Shown here: piece after piece, positions 7,492 through 24,700 of the stretch
Position numbering within the stretch: position 1 is the stretch's first letter
How the letters are laid out: each line of letters opens with the position of its first letter
Program-made: the position numbers and the translations under genes
Assembly: GCA_037445415.1 (NCBI GenBank)
Contig: JBBIKO010000001.1
Coordinates: 1-30,414 of the forward strand
DNA length: 30,414 nt
DNA from: Bacteroidota bacterium
Lineage (GTDB): Bacteria > Bacteroidota > Bacteroidia > Bacteroidales > GWA2-32-17
Reading direction: 5' to 3'
Notes under the pieces: model-generated
The model's database searches: none
What the model saw: only the letters and a program-made list of their open reading frames with translations
Told to the model about the DNA's origin: nothing

Positions 7492-8252
7492 AAAATTTAC
7501 TATCGCATATTAGCTATGGTAAAGGTAAGCCAATAGTTTTTCTTCATGGCTATTTAGAAAACAAATATTTATGGCAATCTATCTTCAATCATTTTAAAGA
7601 ATATCATTGCATAGCATTCGACTTGCCCGGTTGTGGCGAATCAGAAGTACAACCTGAGCAAACAATTAACAGCATGGCTACTGCTGTAAAAAATACACTC
7701 GAGCAATTTAATATTAACAACGCAATAATTATTGGGCATTCGATGGGAGGCTATGTAGCATTAAGTTACGCAGAAATGTTTCCTTCTAATGTTAATGGTT
7801 TGGTGTTACTAAACTCACATCCATTTGCCGATTCAGACGAAAAAAGAAAAAACAGAGAACAAGAAATTAAACTTATCGAACAAGGAAAAAAATCGTTGCT
7901 TGTAAACAATTTTATACTAAAACTTTATGCTCCATCTTTTCAGTACCAAGAAAAATTGGAACACAGCCGTAAAATGGCAGAATTAACTTGCCCAAAAGGG
8001 ATGATATCATGTTTAAAAGCAATGGCTAATCGTAGCGATAAAACACATAATATACATAATGCAACCTTTCCAATATTATGGATATACGGAGAGTTTGACC
8101 AGCTTTTTTCTGCTGAATTAGCAGATAAATTTCATACAGAAAATAATCGTTTAACAAAAATAAAAATTAAAAATACAGGGCACATGGGAATGTACGAAGC
8201 AGAAGAACAGGTAGTAAAATCTATAAAACAATTTTTGCTTTTATGTACATAA
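7488..8252 (+). CDS. Alpha/beta fold hydrolase
   Basis: FLHGYLE oxyanion motif; GHSMGG nucleophile elbow; GEFDQL (Asp); GHMGMYE (His). Confidence 0.9.
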   Translation: MKNLLSHISYGKGKPIVFLHGYLENKYLWQSIFNHFKEYHCIAFDLPGCGESEVQPEQTINSMATAVKNTLEQFNINNAIIIGHSMGGYVALSYAEMFPSNVNGLVLLNSHPFADSDEKRKNREQEIKLIEQGKKSLLVNNFILKLYAPSFQYQEKLEHSRKMAELTCPKGMISCLKAMANRSDKTHNIHNATFPILWIYGEFDQLFSAELADKFHTENNRLTKIKIKNTGHMGMYEAEEQVVKSIKQFLLLCT

Positions 8253-14690: not shown

Positions 14691-15298
14691 TCAGAATAAA
14701 AAACTTTATTTGAGTCTTCAATTAGGGTTAAAATTTCTTCTCTTCCCCTTTTTTCTATTGTACTTGTAAGAATATGTTGTGGTCTCGATTCCCAATAAAA
14801 GTCTAAAAATTTGTATAAATCATTTTTATGGTTGTCTAAAAGCCTTAAATTTGTTTTGTCGGTTTTTGTTGATACAATTACAAAAGGAATAAAATTTTTC
14901 CCTAGAAAAAGCATAAAGTTTTTGTCTTTATCTTGTAATGGTACTCGCGAATCTATTAACATAAAAACACAAGCTAAACTTTTTCTATTCAAAATATATT
15001 CCACAATCATATTATCCCATTTTTGGCGAGTCTCTTTAGAAACTTTGGCAAACCCAAAACCAGGTAAATCAACTAAATACCACGAATTATTAATTAAAAA
15101 ATAATTTATAGTTTTTGTTTTACCTGGTTTAGATGAAGTTTTCGATAAATCCTTTCTGTTTAAAATCATATTTATTAGAGACGATTTTCCTACATTTGAC
15201 CGTCCTATGAACGCATATTCGGGTAAATTTTGTTTAGGACAGTCCTTAAAGCCTACGCAACTTTTAACATAATTAGCTGAACGAATAATCATCGTCAT
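14687..15298 (-). CDS. engB: Ribosome biogenesis GTP-binding protein YihA/YsxC
   Basis: G1 GRSNVGKSSLIN; G2 TSSKPGKTK; G3 DLPGFG; G4 TKTDK. Confidence 0.95.
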   Translation of the reverse strand: MTMIIRSANYVKSCVGFKDCPKQNLPEYAFIGRSNVGKSSLINMILNRKDLSKTSSKPGKTKTINYFLINNSWYLVDLPGFGFAKVSKETRQKWDNMIVEYILNRKSLACVFMLIDSRVPLQDKDKNFMLFLGKNFIPFVIVSTKTDKTNLRLLDNHKNDLYKFLDFYWESRPQHILTSTIEKRGREEILTLIEDSNKVFYSE

Positions 15299-16270
15299 TT
15301 ATTTTACAAAAACTTCTAAATAGTTTGTTGTGCATAAAGGATTAACGTCTATATAACTTAAATCTGCTGGTATTAAATAAACATCGCCTTTAGTATATTG
15401 TTCTGAGCCATCTTTGTATATAATTTCCCCATTTCCATCAATAAAAATTAATATTTTAAAACTATCAATAAATTCATATTCTCTTGTTATTTGTTTATCA
15501 ATAACAAAAAGATTTGTAGAAAAATATGAACACGATACAAGCTCTACGGGTTTGTTTGTTATAGTTTGATAAACAATTTTTGGATTTTCAAGTTTAGTGT
15601 AATCTAAAATGTCTAATGCTTCTTCTATATGTAATTCTCTGTAATTCCCGTCTTTATCTTTACGATTCCAATCGAAAACCCTGTAAGTAATATCGGATGT
15701 TTGTTGTATTTCGGCTAATAATATTCCTTTGCCAATAGCATGTATTCTGCCTGGTGGAATAAAAAAAACATCTCCTTTTTTTGCTGTAACTTTATTTAAT
15801 AGACTTTCTACTGTTCCATGTTCAAGATGATGTATAAATTCTTCTTTATTCAAATTTTTGTTAAAACCAACATATATATACGAATCTGCATCGGCATCAA
15901 CTATATACCACATTTCTGTTTTTCCGTAGGCATGATGACGTTCTTTTGCAATCTCATCGTTTGGATGTACCTGAACAGACAAAATATCGGAAGCATTTAT
16001 AAATTTAATAAGTAAAGGGAATTCGTTGCCGTATTTTTCATATACTTTTTCGCCTAATAAATCGGTCATATAAACTTCAACAAGCTCGTTTAGCGAATTC
16101 CCTTTAAGGAATCTATTGGCAACTAACGACACATGATTTTCAACAGAGCTTATTTCCCACGACTCACCTATGTTATCGTTTAAAATAGGTTTATTTAATA
16201 AAATTTTTAATTTATTTCCTCCCCATATTTTTTCAAAAAAAAGAGGGAAAAATTTTATAGGATACAACAT
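15299..16270 (-). CDS. manA: Mannose-6-phosphate isomerase, class I
   Basis: EKIWGG, IGESWEIS, FPLLIKFI, LSVQVHP, GKTEMWY, EIQQTSDITYRVFDW. ATG 16270 is preferred over the track's TTG 16282, which lies in a -7 box. Confidence 0.93.
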   Translation of the reverse strand: MLYPIKFFPLFFEKIWGGNKLKILLNKPILNDNIGESWEISSVENHVSLVANRFLKGNSLNELVEVYMTDLLGEKVYEKYGNEFPLLIKFINASDILSVQVHPNDEIAKERHHAYGKTEMWYIVDADADSYIYVGFNKNLNKEEFIHHLEHGTVESLLNKVTAKKGDVFFIPPGRIHAIGKGILLAEIQQTSDITYRVFDWNRKDKDGNYRELHIEEALDILDYTKLENPKIVYQTITNKPVELVSCSYFSTNLFVIDKQITREYEFIDSFKILIFIDGNGEIIYKDGSEQYTKGDVYLIPADLSYIDVNPLCTTNYLEVFVK

Positions 16271-16279
16271 AATTTTTTG

Positions 16280-16287
16280 CAAAAGTA
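16280..16287 (-). promoter_or_regulatory. Bacteroidota -7 box TACTTTTG for manA-engB-tonB
   Basis: Matches TAnnTTTG, 9 nt upstream of ATG 16270. Confidence 0.6.
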
Positions 16288-16445
16288 AACTAAATTTCCC
16301 AATAATAACATGAGTATAAACTCAGAAATAGTAAATCAATTAATGTATTAAGACCTTTGCATGGTAATTTGTTAATAAAACGAAAACATTTGTGTATTAA
16401 AACATAAACCAATACTTTGATATACAGCCATTTATTGATAGCCCG

Positions 16446-16495
16446 ATGTATATTGGGAGAAGCTATTTAGAGAATCCCTTTATCCCAATATATAT
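16446..16495. repeat. Intergenic inverted repeat: 13-bp stem, 24-nt loop
   Basis: ATGTATATTGGGA (16446-16458) pairs with TCCCAATATATAT (16483-16495), with one G-T pair. Confidence 0.6.
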
Positions 16496-16703
16496 GCTAA
16501 CTGTAATTAGTCATCCCTTAAAATTCAATTTTTGGATTAAAAATTTTTCAAGCGTAAAACAATATTTCGTTATTACTCCGTGCCTAAATCATAAAAATTT
16601 GCAAGGTTTTTCACATAAAACTACTAAAACTTGTAGTTATTTACGAATAAAATTCTATACAATCTTTTGTTAATAAATAAGTTATACGATTTTTAAGGAA
16701 TAT

Positions 16704-16729
16704 CTATTTATTTTTCTTAATGCGTAATT
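16704..16729 (-). repeat. Left copy of a long inverted repeat pair (partner at 20496-20520)
   Basis: Minus strand reads AATTACGCATTAAGAAAAATAAATAG; differs from the right copy by one A. Confidence 0.85.
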
Positions 16730-16739
16730 TGGGTTAAAT

Positions 16740-16771
16740 AAAAAAAAGGGCTGGATAAGTACCAGCCTCTT
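16740..16771 (-). terminator. Intrinsic terminator of the T9SS hydrolase gene
   Basis: Minus strand AAGAGGCTGG-TACTTAT-CCAGCCC followed by T8, about 25 nt after the TGA at 16795. Confidence 0.8.
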
Positions 16772-16794
16772 CTAACTGACAACCCATTAAATCA

Positions 16795-19700
16795 TCACTC
16801 TTTAATGAACGTATATGTCTTTATTTGTTCATTCATAATGGTTATGATATAGAGCCCTGTTGCCCAGTTTGTTAAATTAAGATTCAATGTTGATGAAGTT
16901 ACGTTATGACGCATGTATATTTGTTTGCCAAGCTCATTAGTAATAATGAGTGTTGAGTTAACAGGGATATTTTCAATGTATAGTTTTTCTTGTGCAGGAT
17001 TTGGGAATAATTTCACAGGCTCTATTTCTGAATTGCTAATATTATTACATATAATGACAGTAACGGTTATTTCGTCGGTAGCTGTACAGCCATTATTATC
17101 GGTAACAGTTACGGCATAAGAATATGTGCCAGTGCCTATTGATGAGCCATCGATGGTTATATTTGGAGTTGTTTGCCCATTGGACCATGCATAATGTGAA
17201 AAGTTACCGGCATTTATTGTCAAATAATCGGTTTGGCAGATGGTTGTATCTAATCCTAAGTTAATGACAGGCAAACTATTAACAACCACATTTACTTGAT
17301 TTATAGCAATACAACCTTTTGCATCAGTAGCAGTAACTGTATAAGTAGTATTTTGTGCAGGTGTAACAGTGATATCAGGTGTTGTTTGACCGGTATTCCA
17401 TGAATAGCTGACAATAGAATTATTAATTTCGAGAACCAACGTCCACTTGTGTAATTTACCTATATCGCTCGAAAGCAAATCGCTAACTTTAAGTTTCCAT
17501 GTACCGACAGCAGGACCGGTTAATGTGTTGAAATTTCCTTCTGGGATATAACTACCGGTAAACGGTGCATTCGTATTTGTAACCGATGAAATAGCCACAG
17601 ATGCCGTCGGGTCGAGTATTGTTCCAATAAAATTATCGCCACTACCACCACGACGATTGATTAAATTTATAGAACTATTATCCGGAGCAATTAAATCTAT
17701 CTTTAAATCACTTACAAAGGGATGAATTAACGAATCAATAATAACTCGTTTTATGGCATTCGATGCTAAAATATTTGAATTTATATTTGAAACAGTAATG
17801 TTCGATGTTACTCCGGTTGAATTATTGTCGGGAATATTTACCTGAGTTGAATTGGATTGAGATAATAACACATTTCCATAAACATTAGTAGCAGTTGTCA
17901 ATGTGGTTGATTGTCCATTGCATATTTGTGTATTACCTTGAATTGTTACCTCTGGATTTTCAACCGTTATTGTTTTTGATAATATATTGTTGGTAGTATC
18001 ATTATCGTTAGTAAATATTATTTTTTGAGTAATAGTATATGTTCCATTTAGCGATAAATCAATATTCCCAACCAATTGATTTAACAAAGCCTGACTTGCA
18101 AGTGTACCTGTGTTGAAATTATATATTAACGATTGGTTAATGGGACCACTCACTTGAATTTTGATAGTTACAGGCGTTACACTAAAATCGACGGTATTAA
18201 TTCCATTATTTTTTATCGTTACTTCAATCGGTTCGTTAGCATAACAAGCTTGTTGTATTGGACTAACAAAGTTTTCGGCAACCAAATCGTAAGGATTATA
18301 GTTTTTTATCAGGATATTATCTAAGTGAAGGTCATAATCATTAGCAGACGAAGTTTCACGGAATACCTGAAATGCAATTGTTACCCCTTGTCCGTTAAAT
18401 CCAGATAAATCGATTTCTATATTTTGTAGTGTATTCGTAAAATTAGTATTTTTTCCAAAAGCAGTTAAACGATTCCATGTAGTACCACAATCGGTAGAAT
18501 AAAAAATTCTCAAACTATCCTTAGTTCCCATTCCGTTTGCATAAGCATTAGTACTATTGTATGCCGTTAATGCCACATCGAAAGAGAGTTTTGTATATGG
18601 ACCACACAAGAATCCCGGACCTAATATCCATTCGCGTATAGGTGATCCATAGAAATTAACTTTAGCAGTAGTGTTGGATGTTCCACCAACTCCAGTCCTG
18701 TTTATCCACAGGGATGTATTACCAGATGGTACAACCCCCTGTGCTTCTTTCCAGCCTGGAAATACTGTTGAAAGATTTGAACCATTAAAACCAGTAAAAT
18801 TAACTTGTAAAGGAAAAGCAACGGTTGTATTGGTATATGTAACACTAATAGTGTCGTTATATATATACTCATCGTTTGGGTAGGAACAATAAGCTACAAA
18901 ACTATATGTAGCACCGGGTTGACCAGCATTAACTGTTTGAGATAATGTATAAATAACCGAATCGTTTGGATTGATGGTGCCTGTATAAACTTCTTGAATG
19001 GGAGGTTGATTATTAAACACTAAACTAACAGGTATGTTGCTAACCGGATTGATACCGTTATTATTAATTACTACACTAACTATTTGATTGGAATTGAGTC
19101 CACAACCATTGTTAGGTGTAACAAATCGGGTTATAGCAACATCGTAGTTCATTAAACAACTACGTTGGAAGGTAATAGTATTCATGCTGTTTAGTCGTTG
19201 ATAGAATATATGTTCGGCAGCAGCATTGCCTTTAAGTATAAATTCTAAATAAGGGATTAACAATTGGGCAACGATTTCGTGTTGTTGTTCACGTGATATA
19301 GTAGGTTGAGGGTTGGTTGTCCCTTCGCCAAAGCTACAATTAAAATTATAATCAGCGAAGTAGCAATGCCCACCACCAATAATGCCTATAAGAGTTTTAC
19401 ACGATGATGCTAATGCCTGATACATTGGTATTTGATGGTTTACCGGAGGAGTAACACCATCGTTTACACCATAAAATAAAACTGACGGAACGGTAACATT
19501 CGCAGCAGCCGCTATGGCACTGGGATTGGTTTCTGCAGCAGCAAAATTAACAAGTGTAGTTAAGTTTGTATTGTTGGCAGCAGCTAAAAATGAGCTTCCA
19601 CCACCCATTGAGTGCCCCATGATAGCACTTGTACCAAGAATGTGCTGATAAAAGTCAGATGAAGGGTTTGAACCTTCGCTCAATAAGAAGTTGTTCAAAA

Positions 19701-20040
19701 ATTTTAGGTCTTCGCCAAATGCACTGTGATTTGGCGAAATGCTTCCTTCGGTACGAGGGAAAGCCATAATATAGCCTTTTGGAACCAAGCTATCCCATAG
19801 CCATTCGTAAGAATTCCAAGCCATTACAAATCCATGACCAAAAACCAACACCGGAAATTGTCCGGCAGCAAAAGGAACATTGTTGCCTGCTGTAGTAGCC
19901 GGATAATACACCTCGGTTTGAATTGTCCTGTTGCGAGCAGGATCTACAAAATTATACTGTTTATGACCTACCTGGTAGTTTTGAGACATTACAGCCCACG
20001 TCAATAAACAAAAAACGAAAAATAATAATGTTTTTCTCAT
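16795..20040 (-). CDS. T9SS-secreted multidomain alpha/beta hydrolase (cutinase/chlorophyllase-like esterase + Ig/CARDB-like + beta-sandwich + proprotein convertase P-domain + T9SS CTD)
   Basis: Signal peptide; FGHGF; GHSMGGG (Ser144); NDGVTPP (Asp194); GGGHCYF (His225); P-domain IPDNNSTG...HPFVSDLKIDLIAPD...GTWKLKVSD; CTD KLFPNPAQEKLYI...GLYIITI...TFIKE. Confidence 0.85.
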   Translation of the reverse strand: MRKTLLFFVFCLLTWAVMSQNYQVGHKQYNFVDPARNRTIQTEVYYPATTAGNNVPFAAGQFPVLVFGHGFVMAWNSYEWLWDSLVPKGYIMAFPRTEGSISPNHSAFGEDLKFLNNFLLSEGSNPSSDFYQHILGTSAIMGHSMGGGSSFLAAANNTNLTTLVNFAAAETNPSAIAAAANVTVPSVLFYGVNDGVTPPVNHQIPMYQALASSCKTLIGIIGGGHCYFADYNFNCSFGEGTTNPQPTISREQQHEIVAQLLIPYLEFILKGNAAAEHIFYQRLNSMNTITFQRSCLMNYDVAITRFVTPNNGCGLNSNQIVSVVINNNGINPVSNIPVSLVFNNQPPIQEVYTGTINPNDSVIYTLSQTVNAGQPGATYSFVAYCSYPNDEYIYNDTISVTYTNTTVAFPLQVNFTGFNGSNLSTVFPGWKEAQGVVPSGNTSLWINRTGVGGTSNTTAKVNFYGSPIREWILGPGFLCGPYTKLSFDVALTAYNSTNAYANGMGTKDSLRIFYSTDCGTTWNRLTAFGKNTNFTNTLQNIEIDLSGFNGQGVTIAFQVFRETSSANDYDLHLDNILIKNYNPYDLVAENFVSPIQQACYANEPIEVTIKNNGINTVDFSVTPVTIKIQVSGPINQSLIYNFNTGTLASQALLNQLVGNIDLSLNGTYTITQKIIFTNDNDTTNNILSKTITVENPEVTIQGNTQICNGQSTTLTTATNVYGNVLLSQSNSTQVNIPDNNSTGVTSNITVSNINSNILASNAIKRVIIDSLIHPFVSDLKIDLIAPDNSSINLINRRGGSGDNFIGTILDPTASVAISSVTNTNAPFTGSYIPEGNFNTLTGPAVGTWKLKVSDLLSSDIGKLHKWTLVLEINNSIVSYSWNTGQTTPDITVTPAQNTTYTVTATDAKGCIAINQVNVVVNSLPVINLGLDTTICQTDYLTINAGNFSHYAWSNGQTTPNITIDGSSIGTGTYSYAVTVTDNNGCTATDEITVTVIICNNISNSEIEPVKLFPNPAQEKLYIENIPVNSTLIITNELGKQIYMRHNVTSSTLNLNLTNWATGLYIITIMNEQIKTYTFIKE

Positions 20041-20065
20041 ACTTATATAAGATTTGAAATTTATA

Positions 20066-20073
20066 CAAAAATA
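20066..20073 (-). promoter_or_regulatory. Bacteroidota -7 box TATTTTTG for the T9SS hydrolase gene
   Basis: Matches TAnnTTTG, 25 nt upstream of ATG 20040. Confidence 0.55.
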
Positions 20074-20181
20074 GTATAAAGTTTTGAATATTTCAAAAAA
20101 ATATTCATATTTTTAAATAATTTTTTCATAAAATTTTACTTTAAAAAAATATTCTTATTTTGCATACACTTTTTGACATTT

Positions 20182-20255
20182 AGGAGCATAGCTCAGCAGG
20201 TTCATAGCACCTGACTTACAAGCAGTGGGGTATGGGTTTGAATCCTATTGCTCCA
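20182..20255 (+). tRNA. Degenerate tRNA-Val(TAC), probable pseudogene
   Basis: GGAGCA/TGCTCC acceptor pairing, TAGCTCAG, anticodon loop CTTACAA (TAC at 20217-20219), T-stem ATGGG/CCTAT. There are mismatches in the D-stem, anticodon stem and 1:72 pair, and the T-loop is TTTGAAT. Confidence 0.8.
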
Positions 20256-20263
20256 CAAAATAT

Positions 20264-20298
20264 AAGGACTTCAGATGATTTTATTTGAAGGCTTTTTT
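20264..20298 (+). terminator. Imperfect intrinsic terminator after the tRNA relic
   Basis: AAGGACTTCAGAT-GATTTT-ATTTGAAGGCTT followed by a T run. Confidence 0.6.
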
Positions 20299-20495
20299 GT
20301 TTCCAGACACAATTTTGAAATGGGTATCCATTTTTTTTCATTAACACCTTAAATAATAAGAGCAAGAAAAACTTGCTTCAAAGAAATTTGTCTTTTAAAC
20401 CTTTTTCATATTGTCAATTATTAAATCTCAATAAGCCTAATTAAGCTATTTGAAGCGTTAATACATTTGAACAAAAAAATTTTTATTTGTCTTCC

Positions 20496-20520
20496 AATTA
20501 CGCATTAGAAAAATAAATAG
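20496..20520 (+). repeat. Right copy of a long inverted repeat pair (partner at 16704-16729)
   Basis: AATTACGCATTAGAAAAATAAATAG. Confidence 0.85.
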
Positions 20521-20730
20521 GTAGTGAAAATTCCTTTGATGTGTTACATAGACTTACCCGACTTCGTCTCTTAGTTGTAATAATTTCATTTTCTATTTTT
20601 TTGTAAATTAAAAATTAATAAGATATTAACATTTTTTATATATAATTTTTAGAAAGTTTTATGAATGAAAAAAATAAACGCCTACGAAAATAAATTTAGT
20701 ATTATTTTTAAAATAAAGTAAATTTTTCAT

Positions 20731-20738
20731 TATTTTTG
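20731..20738 (+). promoter_or_regulatory. Bacteroidota -7 box TATTTTTG
   Basis: Matches TAnnTTTG, 5 nt before ATG 20744. Confidence 0.5.
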
Positions 20739-20743
20739 ACTTC

Positions 20744-21709
20744 ATGAAATGGTTGTTATTATTTTTACTTTTAAATTGTAATTTGAGTGTAATTTTTGCT
20801 CAACCTATACCTACAAATGAGGAGAATATACCTTTTCTTGTAACATTTGGCGGCAATAGCGACATAAAGTGGGGTGATGACGATTTTTGTCAAATATTTT
20901 TCATATTAATACCAACTAATTATATTCAACCGTTTTATATTAGAATTTTTGATCCAGACTGTTGTGGTACGCACGATGAACCTAAAGGACCTTTTAATAC
21001 TAAAACATCCTTTTCGGTATATGGAGGTAAGTCTTGTTATACAGATCCCGCTTCAAAAAATACCGATCCTAAAGGGAATTATAAAGCAGGTAATCTATTA
21101 ACTTCCAAAAATTTTGGCGATGATTGTAAATACGATAACGAATGGTATTCAATTGGACCATTTAACCCCACTGAAGGCGAGATGGTTCCTGAATTTGGTG
21201 GTCGAATTTTTAAAATAATTATTCAGGGATTAAGTGGAGATGATGGCAATTTATATAAAATCTTTGTTAGTACTGATGCAAAAGAAAATAAAGCAATAGA
21301 AGGAGGAAATGCTTTTACTTACGAATATACTTTTAGATTGTGGGACAATCCGCAAAATATTTCTCACATTTATCCTTATGTTGACGACAAGGTAATTTCA
21401 ATAAAAATAACTAATTTCGATTGGGATAATGATGGATTGATAAGAGTAATTTCTGTAGCTAAAAATGGCTTAAAAGTTGAAGTATCTAGTGAAGGCGAAT
21501 GGAAAAGCACGGTATTACCTGTTGTAACAGAGGAGAAAAATACATCATTCGATATACAATTTGTAAAAGATAAATTTATAAAAAACAATAATGTTGTTGT
21601 TTTTGTAACAAACCAATATGGCGAATTACTCCCTTTTTATGTAAGTCCAATTGGTGGTATCCCAAAATATAAAGGAAAAATTAAGACAACACCTATAAAG
21701 AAAAAATAA
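20744..21709 (+). CDS. Secreted hypothetical protein
   Basis: 321-aa ORF with signal peptide (MKWLLLFLLLNCNLSVIFA-Q), beta-rich, acidic motifs WGDDDF, GDDGN, DWDNDG; family not recognised. Confidence 0.8.
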   Translation: MKWLLLFLLLNCNLSVIFAQPIPTNEENIPFLVTFGGNSDIKWGDDDFCQIFFILIPTNYIQPFYIRIFDPDCCGTHDEPKGPFNTKTSFSVYGGKSCYTDPASKNTDPKGNYKAGNLLTSKNFGDDCKYDNEWYSIGPFNPTEGEMVPEFGGRIFKIIIQGLSGDDGNLYKIFVSTDAKENKAIEGGNAFTYEYTFRLWDNPQNISHIYPYVDDKVISIKITNFDWDNDGLIRVISVAKNGLKVEVSSEGEWKSTVLPVVTEEKNTSFDIQFVKDKFIKNNNVVVFVTNQYGELLPFYVSPIGGIPKYKGKIKTTPIKKK

Positions 21710-21714
21710 AAGCG

Positions 21715-24700
21715 ATGAAAATATTTGCTGTGGCAGTACTGTTTGTTTTTTTTAATTTTACAACATTATCTCAAACATACCAATTCAAAGTACTATCTAC
21801 CGAAAACACTAATATTTATCCCTATATTTATTCAATCAATCAAGATTCTATTGGTTATTTGTGGTTAGGAACAGGAGATGGATTGTATTTATACGATGGA
21901 AATGTTCTAAACTCTTTCCCCTTGACTTTTATTGGTGGAGACAACTTTATAACTTCTATTGCTATAGATAAAAAAGGGATGCCATATATAGGATTAAACA
22001 ATGGAACAGTAGTGTCGAGGCAAGGAAACGAGTTTATTCTTTTAAAAGAAACAATTAGGTTTAAATCAACCATTAGTCAGATAAGTTATTCCGACAACGA
22101 CTTGTTTGTTGCAGTACAAAACAAAGGAATATACCGCATAAATCATCAATATCAAGTTTACGACTCCATCATCATTCCAAACGTACAAACATATTGCTTT
22201 ATTAAATTTAAATCTCACATTATTATAGGAACTTCAGAAGGAATATATATATATCAAAATAATCAGCTAAACTTTTTAGATCATATATCAAAATCAAAAG
22301 TAGAATGTTTTCTTTATAATCAGCATTCAAAAACTTTATTTGTAGGGACCGAAGAAGAAGGAATGTTGGAATTAACTTTAAAAAATAATCAATTACAAAT
22401 TTTTAAATCTTATTCTTTCATAGACAATATTAAAGATATTGTTGCAGACAGCGATGGAAATATTTATGTAGCTACAATGGGCAGTGGTGTTTTTTTTTAT
22501 AGAAGAAATCCTTTAAATAATACTTTTTCGTTAGAATTTCAATTTAATAATCAAAATGGTTTACCAAATTTACAAATAAAAGATTTATTTATAGATAAAG
22601 AAAATAATTTATGGATAGGTAGCTATGGAGGCGGATTATTTCAATATTACGAAAGTGCTTTCAACATTCTTTTTACAAAAATTGACGGAAAAGATGTTTC
22701 TCATACAGCCGTTTATGCTTTAAACGAATTTATATTTTCAGGAACAGCCGATGGTAAGATACTTAAAATTAATGTTAAAAATCCTCAGGTTTATAGTTCA
22801 ATTATTATTCCAGAAATAAAAAACCATAAGATAACAGCTTTATATCTTGATAATTATTTTATTTTATGGATTGGAACCGAAACTAAAGGTGTTTTTCTTT
22901 ACGATGTAATAAAAAATAAACTTATTAAACATATAAATTTCCGTGATAACTTACAAAATAATATTAGTGCTATTGATGGATACGGAAATTATCGTTGTAT
23001 AGGCACAAAAAATGGTCTTATTGTTCTAAATACAGAAAAGCAACCGTATGAATACGAAACATATACTACTGTTCAAGGACTTTCGCATAATTATATAAAT
23101 CATTTATTATGCGATTTAAAAGGTGAATTATGGATTGCTACACCTACTAACTTTATTTCCAAATATAACTTTAATACCAAAAAAATTACTCTTGAAAAAA
23201 TAAATTCAGGCGATATATTAAAAGTAACATCTCTTTGTTTAGATGTTAATAATCAATTGTGGTTAGCTACCTATGGCAACGGTATTTTTAAGTACGATAC
23301 AATTTTGACTAATTATACTTCTTCAAACGGTTTATTTTCCGATTATTCATATTCAATAATTTTTGACGAAACAGGAACTATTTGGCTAGGTCATAGGCAA
23401 GGTATTACTTCAATAAAAGGAAATACAATAAGAACTTTCTCTAAAAATATACGGCTTTATTCCGATTGCAATCCTAATGCTGTTAATATAGATAAGTATG
23501 GATCTATATGGTTTGGAACAACAAAAGGTTTAGTGCGTTATAATTATAAAAAAAGTGTAATTAACAAAGTTCCGCCAACAGTTCTTGTAACAAGTATAAA
23601 AATTAATGATGTAGAGCAATTGGTTGAACCATACATAGAACTTGAAGCTGGACGATACAAATTACAAATATCTTTTACAGGAATATCACTTCGCGAATCC
23701 GAAGGTGTTACTTTTCAATACATTCTTGAAGGGTATGATGTAAGCTGGTCAGAAATAACTAACAACAGAACAGTATTATACCCACGATTAGAAGAAGGAA
23801 CATATACGTTTAAGGTTATAGCTTATAACTACGACAAAGTAGCATCTTTAAAGCCTTATACTGTAAAAATTAAAATTCTACCACCTTTTTACAAACGTTG
23901 GTGGTTTATACTTGTTTCAGCTTTATTTGTGATTTACATGTTTTATATTATATTAAAAATTAGAGAACGTAACCATAAACGAATGGAGAAAATATTAAAA
24001 GAAAAACTTGATCAAAGAACAAAAGAAGTTGTTAAACAAAAAGAACTTATTGAACGAAAAAATAAAGATATTACAGATAGTATTCAATATGCTAAAAGGA
24101 TACAAGAAGCTATATTCCCTTCGCTAAAAACCTTACAGGAATACTATCCACAATCATTTGTCTTTTATTTACCACGCGATATTGTAAGTGGCGATTTTTA
24201 TATGTTTAGTCCGATAGAAAAATCGTTTATTATTATTTGTGCCGATGCAACAGGACATGGTGTTCCCGGTGCTTTTATGTCTTTAATTTCGAGTACTATA
24301 TTAAAAGATATATTACATAAATACAAATCAATAAAACCAAGCCAATTATTATACCAGCTCGATGCTGAAATTAGTCAAATTTTTAATCAAGAAAATTCAG
24401 AAACACAAGATGGACTTGATCTGTCTGTTTGTTTGTTCGACCAAACTACAAATATTCTTACGTTTAGTGCCGCTATGCGACCTTTGCTTATCTTTAAAAA
24501 CAATAAATGGACATATTATAAAGGAAGCAGATATTCTATAGGTTTCTCTAAATACAATATACAAAAAGAATTCACCGATAACTACATAAAATTAGATAAA
24601 GGCGATAGGTTTTATCTCTTTACCGATGGATTGCCTGATCAATTTAGTAACGATAACAAAAAACTTAAAATCAGTGGCTTAATTCACTGGTTAGAAGAAA

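Follow-up and report, generated by a model that had tools for sequence, protein, structure and literature searches.

Short inverted repeats on either side of a gene for a secreted protein raise the question of whether that gene can be flipped or moved as a cassette. Such an arrangement is found on contig C1 (JBBIKO010000001.1) of a metagenome-assembled genome (MAG) of a Bacteroidales bacterium (GCA_037445415.1). The whole contig, 30,414 nucleotides (nt) in length, is the window analysed here, and the MAG comprises 1.83 Mb in 230 contigs, with a GC content of 29.8% and a completeness of 79.7%. The repeats bracket a segment holding the gene of a PETase-like hydrolase, sorted by the type IX secretion system (T9SS), and a sequence resembling a valine tRNA. 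Bacteroidota are known to flip promoters of surface structures and shufflons by means of recombinases. An earlier note on this DNA had offered three options for the repeats, namely the borders of an invertible segment, the termini of an element by which the hydrolase was brought in, or a dispersed motif. With a probability of roughly 0.88, the two arms are independent, decayed ends of non-autonomous elements derived from insertion sequences (ISs) of the IS1380 family, and the hydrolase lies between two old insertions. The hydrolase block is most likely neither a flippable nor a mobile cassette.

The left arm is a 26-mer at positions 16704–16729 on the minus strand, and the right arm is a 25-mer at 20496–20520 on the plus strand, separated by 3766 nt. 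When reverse-complemented, the left arm equals the right arm apart from one extra A of its own, and a repeat search of the window returns the pair as two gapless pieces, split at this indel. The arms, with their one-base difference, were reproduced directly from the window sequence as the earlier note had described them, and so was the enclosed content of hydrolase gene, terminator and tRNA-like sequence (Table 1). Since 100 shuffles of the window that preserved its dinucleotide composition yielded no match to the 25-mer at three or fewer mismatches, the repeat is not an artefact of composition. Profile alignment widens the common part to 16701–16733 and 20492–20555. The weaker similarity previously reported to extend beyond the arms is partly borne out, in that the CCC or TCC just outside them belongs to the shared part. 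The right 25-mer is identical to a copy on another contig of the MAG (C172), while the left arm is no nearer to the right arm than to other copies; therefore, no special relationship exists between the two arms.

Copies elsewhere in the MAG were located with BLAST and with an iterated nhmmer profile built from positions 20470–20570. The profile yielded 17 matches, to which a list of exact 9-mer cores adds paired partners and a copy on contig C13, giving a total of about 18 loci. These copies, referred to as heads, start sharply with CCCAAATTACGCATTAG and continue into an A-rich stretch. The flanks preceding this start are unrelated to each other, and those of most copies end in a TTAA-like sequence. 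Two inverted heads stand about 210 nt apart on C84, C19, C6 and C112, and degenerate partners are found on C172 and C25. The six loci represent miniature inverted-repeat transposable elements (MITEs) of about 218 bp without coding capacity, each with two inverted ends and outward termini, which align end to end at about 75–91% identity (75% for C25). The remaining dozen or so loci are solo or truncated ends. Neighbouring genes, named by their N-terminal sequence only, resemble aspS, glyA, dps and an acyl-CoA dehydrogenase gene. The stop codon of the aspartyl-tRNA synthetase-like gene lies 2 nt from its MITE, and glyA and dps are convergent around theirs.

The motif was identified through its occurrence in other genomes. 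Of 301 genomes from the order to which the MAG belongs, only 13 contain the exact 16-mer in a pattern search, and these are distributed over different families. One of these genomes (G111) carries 12 copies, mostly 90–160 nt from contig ends, which is the signature of a multi-copy, assembly-breaking element. At these places, an open reading frame (ORF) beginning with MEFDISFTNKEITPWGG starts about 50–80 nt past the head. Locus L027 on contig C527 of this genome consists of a 1405-bp unit with inverted heads at both ends and one ORF of 448 amino acids. This ORF matches the NCBIfam model of the IS1380 transposase (NF033539) with 256.7 bits, the cut-off being 180, as well as the Pfam families DDE_Tnp_1_4 (PF13701; 1.7e-50) and DDE_Tnp_1 (3.9e-24). 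Among GTDB representative genomes, the exact 21-mer occurs at 28 loci, with an IS1380-like transposase match beside the head at 16 of them. The hosts of the 28 loci are Flavobacterium, Sphingobacterium, Bacteroidales, Cytophagales, Prolixibacteraceae and a few MAGs from outside the Bacteroidota. Complete ISs of 1.4 kb are present at L046, L064, L051 and L035, the last with its transposase split into two ORFs, and MITEs of 62–258 bp with the same ends at L042, L056, L066, L067 and L068. In the complete ISs, CCC is outermost and the transposase gene lies inside. If the element is taken as CCC...GGG, direct duplications of TTAAG (L064), TTTAA (L068) and TTAA (L056) are visible. A 5-bp duplication and inverted repeats of 16/13 nt are listed for IS1247, a member of the IS1380 family (PMC3281130, Table 2).

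The first 22–24 nt of the left arm and of most heads in the MAG correspond to the left ends of L027/L051 and L046. The right arm deviates in the outermost 2–3 nt (TTC/TCC for CCC) and agrees from the CAATTACGC core onward. Furthermore, a subterminal CTAATGCGTAGCGTTAG-like box is common to the MITEs of the MAG and the left ends of the ISs. Since the motif bounds full ISs that encode an IS1380 transposase and show TTAA-like duplications, the head is the terminal inverted repeat (TIR) of this family, and the 218-bp units are MITE derivatives. The family is multi-copy, dispersed and patchy in its distribution, and its insertions are polymorphic between relatives. Specifically, in five congeners glyA is not followed by the MITE located downstream of it in the MAG, as expected of a lineage-specific insertion. 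As far as checked, this TIR family and its MITEs in uncultured Bacteroidota are a further member of a well-known kind of element; a literature search for IS1380 together with MITE returned nothing on Bacteroidota. At L046, L056, L064 and L068, CCC-initial ends occur together with a TTAA-like target duplication, recalling the eukaryotic transposon piggyBac. The latter targets TTAA and has CCC-initial ends, and IS1380 transposases have been reported to be related to it.

In the window, both copies are reduced to a single end. The left copy has its CCC terminus at position 16733 on the minus strand (GGG at 16731–16733 on the plus strand), and its interior extends leftwards, away from the hydrolase. 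On the plus strand it reads ...GCGTAATTTGGG, directly followed by a TTAAAT flank, which fits the target preference, and by the hydrolase terminator. Only about 32 nt are shared with the head family before the left arm passes straight into another repeat, named Z. The right copy starts at about 20492–20494 with a degenerate TCC, and its body extends rightwards, likewise away from the hydrolase. It spans 58–64 nt and is 96.6% identical over 58 nt to the MITE on C172, after which the similarity stops. The window copies are relics and not complete MITEs. Both termini abut the hydrolase/tRNA block, and thus the block lies outside both elements and is not their cargo. In a simulation with 18 loci placed at random on the contigs of the MAG, at least one pair fell within 3.8 kb of each other in 39% of trials, and the exact geometry of the window arose in 11.5%.

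Seven congeners (G001–G007) were available for a comparison of gene order. The manA block (15299–16282), the hydrolase block (16795–20040) and the block of the operon that begins at 20744 (20744–21709) are located on three different contigs in all seven. The comparison with relatives proposed in the earlier note therefore returned unlinked blocks throughout, the order in the window being unique among the sampled genomes. At both of its junctions, a synteny breakpoint falls on one of the repeats. Among the congeners, G005 is the closest for which data exist, and its hydrolase orthologue shows 74% amino acid identity over 997 residues. This gene has an intact tRNA-Val(TAC) on one side and, on the other, a terminator followed by a head-bearing MITE of about 150 nt (CCCAGATTACGCATTAG...). 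A near-identical MITE is located upstream of manA on another contig of G005. In G007, the pair of intact tRNA-Val(TAC) and hydrolase is kept, with no head. As the order of tRNA-Val and hydrolase is kept in congeners, the hydrolase was inherited within the genus and not delivered by the repeat pair. An exact scan of metagenome contigs for the hydrolase terminator, aimed at close strains and empty sites, gave no matches.

The shared 25–33 nt represent the TIR of the IS1380-type family, at which its DDE transposase acts by binding and cutting. Each arm would go back to an old insertion that hit a TTAA-like target within AT-rich intergenic DNA; the left one would have landed immediately beyond the hydrolase terminator, the right one downstream of the tRNA-Val gene. 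Decay, nesting and truncation probably followed insertion, and the inverted arrangement around the hydrolase would be coincidental. Having single ends only and no cognate transposase, both copies are presumably immobile today. At most, they may act as short homologies where rearrangements between species have occurred.

Several points weigh against two independent old insertions. As the window copies have one end each, neither can be shown to have a target-site duplication, and recognisable duplications have been lost at most MITEs of the MAG (TTAA at C19 only). An IS1380-like transposase was not found in the MAG, either with a protein query or with PF13701 and PF01609, nor in 16 of the 17 other genomes of the family; the remaining one (G001) holds a short fragment with an internal stop. 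Past mobility in the lineage is therefore presumed rather than demonstrated. ISs are often lost from MAGs, and as this MAG is moreover only about 80% complete, the absence of the transposase is not proven. The head at the 3' end of the hydrolase gene is better conserved between the MAG (G000) and G005 than the neighbouring spacer, which could reflect constraint or gene conversion rather than neutral decay. In addition, inversion of the 3.8-kb segment was only examined at an unusable read depth. One public run contains the stretch, probably the source subsurface metagenome, in the form of Logan contigs of about 4x. Over 15300–21800, these contigs end at 16590/16718 and 20496/20553, which are the edges of the repeats, and their loose ends run into other copies. 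They contain no strand-change joint, and the depth is too shallow to speak on inversion either way.

A phase-variable cassette, in which a site-specific recombinase acting in trans flips the 3.8-kb hydrolase/tRNA segment, is highly improbable. It would account for near-identical inverted repeats of 25/26 nt around a gene for a secreted or surface T9SS protein, and a recombinase could be missed in a MAG of this completeness, but the motif forms the end of an IS that encodes a DDE transposase and is not the core site of a recombinase. It also occurs next to unrelated housekeeping genes at about 16 further loci, and such scattered copies, brought out by the genome-wide search with the repeat (about 18 loci in all), are what the earlier note had itself named as speaking against a cassette. 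The recombinase survey recommended there was also carried out. It revealed no serine recombinase (PF00239) in the whole MAG and one match to the tyrosine recombinases (PF00589), on C89, whose best matches are XerC/XerD. No invertase was found with these two families, adjacent to the segment or elsewhere in the MAG. Searches of the whole genome with PF00589, PF00239, PF13701 and PF01609 gave no match on contig C1, in line with the earlier statement that the window lacks a recombinase or transposase. Furthermore, the promoter region and the terminator of the hydrolase gene lie inside the segment, and therefore flipping would not switch the gene; the joints expected of an inverted strand are missing from the single run, whose 4x contigs are uninformative. 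The invertible segment is thus left without support. Barely less improbable is a reading in which the inward-facing IS1380 ends, served by a supplied transposase, invert or delete the tRNA-Val/hydrolase block or, more modestly, in which the MITE family reshuffled this block between congeners. If inside-out action did take place, the expression or the presence of the T9SS hydrolase would be variable in the population, and the transposase would stem from an unassembled resident IS or an incoming element. Delivery of the hydrolase by a composite or one-ended unit, with the repeats as its ends, can be given as little credence as flipping. IS1380-family elements mobilise adjacent DNA via surrogate ends, as in the "transposable modules" of ISEcp1 and ISPme1 (PMC9330008, section 7.3; PMC3281130, introduction). 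In favour of such a unit, the GC content of the hydrolase gene is 36%, somewhat above that of its neighbours (25–33%), and no two of the three blocks (manA, hydrolase, 20744 gene) are linked in the seven congeners. However, a module needs termini that face outward from the cargo, whereas here both face the cargo and the bodies lie outside. The contig has no further head that might act as an outer end, and no IS or transposase was found in the contig or the MAG. The idea of a hydrolase-delivering element is contradicted by these inward termini and by the inheritance of the unit of tRNA-Val, hydrolase, terminator and TIR in G005, the hydrolase-tRNA pair also being present in G007.

A cis-regulatory role, in which the motif is a protein-binding box that precedes both the manA and the 20744 operon in the same orientation, is scarcely tenable either. 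Both window copies are directed at the start of the next operon and the head is conserved across genera, but ORF maps of the 18 loci show 12 heads co-directional with the downstream gene and six directed into convergent gene ends. The motif also has a sharp outer boundary, forms the TIRs of ISs and MITEs, and is patchy across the order, as expected of mobile DNA. From the option of a dispersed motif, the dispersal stands and the common direction relative to downstream genes does not, and the motif is a TIR rather than a regulatory box. A rearrangement scar, which is compatible with two independent insertions, can be considered tentatively, although it is rather unlikely. According to this explanation, the tRNA-Val/hydrolase block came to lie beside manA and the 20744 operon through ectopic recombination among scattered copies of the MITE/TIR, and the two arms would mark synteny breakpoints. 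In G005, the hydrolase-terminator-MITE junction and the MITE-manA junction are on different contigs and involve the two near-identical MITEs, and the homology between the window and G005 ends inside the head. Moreover, the MAG orthologues of genes situated next to manA and the 20744 homologue in G005 adjoin heads or MITEs on C136 and C172. Yet congeners are only about 70–75% identical, so that synteny may have been broken otherwise, and MITEs are common in spacers, so that a certain overlap with breakpoints is to be expected. A reciprocal junction did not come to light when the orthologues in the MAG of the G005 genes downstream of the hydrolase and upstream of manA were sought together.

Several known systems were compared with the repeats. 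What links the elements described here to the IS1380 family (ISEcp1, ISPme1, IS1247) is that their motif is the TIR of 1.4-kb units whose transposase scores above the NCBIfam equivalog cut-off. Their ends start with CC, intact copies show TTAA-like duplications of 4–5 bp, and noncoding derivatives measure 62–258 bp. In contrast, the window holds only single truncated ends, and the cognate transposase is missing from the MAG. The ISs are about 1.4 kb long, whereas 1672 bp are listed for IS1247 (PMC3281130). The ISEcp1/ISPme1 modules belong to the same family and capture flanking genes with surrogate ends (PMC9330008, PMC3281130), but they need an intact IS and outward ends, while the ends here point inward and lack an IS. 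The pdif modules of Acinetobacter plasmids are likewise located between inversely oriented sites of about 28 bp, and the sole recombinase of the MAG is Xer-like. Unlike pdif sites, the head shows on inspection no palindrome of arm, spacer (6–8 nt) and arm, and it is explained as a transposase end. The bacterial interspersed mosaic elements (BIMEs) of E. coli, the pneumococcal BOX elements and the Correia elements of Neisseria resemble the repeats described here in that modules (head/P1, Z, X and Y) occur in varied order and orientation in spacers, often by terminators. They have no sequence relationship to them, and at least one module here can be traced to a defined IS family.

The invertible promoters and shufflons of Bacteroides, served by Mpi or a tyrosine recombinase, share with this locus short inverted repeats that bracket a segment by a gene for a surface or secreted protein. 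They differ in that no invertase was found here, and in that the repeats are those of a DDE transposon, situated beside housekeeping genes and between convergent genes. The 218-bp elements of the MAG are similar in size to invertible promoter regions and contain a box resembling TAnnTTTG. They were considered as invertible promoters on account of their size, their inverted ends and the internal TAACTTTG box on C84. This idea was dropped, as the other copies are located beside aspS, glyA/dps and an acyl-CoA dehydrogenase gene, two copies lie between convergent genes, and the ends match IS1380 ISs. Kinship with repetitive extragenic palindromes (REPs) and REP-associated tyrosine transposases (RAYTs), or with dif/pdif sites, was considered because the heads of G005 and G193 form a short hairpin. 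These candidates were abandoned for the same match of the ends to IS1380 ISs; a search for RAYT (PF01797) was not made.

The analysis removes a false lead, as the tidy inverted repeats around a secreted PETase-like hydrolase can best be understood as two unrelated transposon scars. Short inverted repeats in this genus should be compared with the genome-wide repeat set before a switch is called. The sequence CCCAAATTACGCATTAG is a useful marker: the IS1380-type element and the MITEs that it reveals are widespread among Bacteroidota and disrupt MAG assemblies. Furthermore, the repeats coincide with differences in gene order between related species and may help in scaffolding and in the interpretation of synteny.

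Table 1. Features of the window at and between the two inverted arms.
Feature	Position	Strand	Evidence
Solo IS1380-family TIR (head)	16701..16733	-	nhmmer profile match 16733-16701, profile positions 1-32; aligned with other copies and full IS ends
Second MITE-like repeat Z, about 205-215 nt, own TIR TAGTYGTCCCTTAAAAAT	16503..16706	-	blastn and alignment
Truncated left end of a P1-type MITE	20492..20555	+	nhmmer match 20494-20555; TIR and about 35 nt of subterminal sequence
T9SS-sorted PETase-like alpha/beta hydrolase, 1081 amino acids	16795..20040	-	Pfam PETase 1.5e-16, P_proprotein, PKD, Por_Secre_tail
Intrinsic-terminator-like hairpin and T-run of the hydrolase gene, between gene and head	16740..16769	-	read from sequence
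tRNA-Val(UAC)-like sequence, several mismatched stem pairs	20182..20256	+	Rfam RF00005 43.4 bits, 5 non-standard pairs

The hydrolase encoded in the window is 165 amino acids shorter than the orthologue in G005, in which the repeated C-terminal domain region is present in one more copy (locus L012, 627–4367). ARAGORN does not report the tRNA-like sequence, which has 79% identity to an intact tRNA-Val(tac) on contig C25 of the MAG (7560–7635); either this window copy is in decay or the 4x coverage has introduced errors into it. On C25, a 218-bp MITE of the same family lies 119 nt downstream of the tRNA gene in the same orientation. An Rfam search of 15000–22000 (E ≤ 1) returned the tRNA only, so that neither arm matches a known RNA family. 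A stretch of 105 nt past the tRNA-like sequence and before the right arm (20331–20435) is 85% identical, in inverted orientation, to positions 2249–2353 of C72, a contig without any tRNA.

The Z repeat has copies of 85–86% identity over about 215 nt on C55 (6460–6673) and C2 (3937–4153 and 1–113), and weaker ones on C19 (665–838), C133 (865–998) and C187. In three loci, on C1, C2 and C133, Z abuts the IS1380 head at one and the same junction, after ...AAATAAATA, which points to nesting at a specific site or to an ancestor of composite structure. The MITEs on C6 and C25 are flanked by two short spacer repeats (on C6, 4310–4360 and 4651–4706; about 1410–1460 and 1752–1806 of locus L069). These repeats consist of a terminator-like hairpin of about 40 nt and a repeat of about 50 nt, and together they have at least 20 matches each in G005, G007 and G001, at 80–97% identity. 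The genus is rich in mosaic intergenic repeats. IS1380-family elements are known for outward promoters, and the 218-bp MITE on C84 (4783–4999; locus L071) lies about 300 nt upstream of polysaccharide-type genes. Judged by their N-terminal sequence only, these ORFs resemble a hexapeptide acetyltransferase, a Gfo/Idh/MocA protein and an NDP-sugar dehydrogenase. The MITE contains TAACTTTG, similar to the -7 box of Bacteroidota and directed at these genes, and by analogy it might drive the polysaccharide operon.

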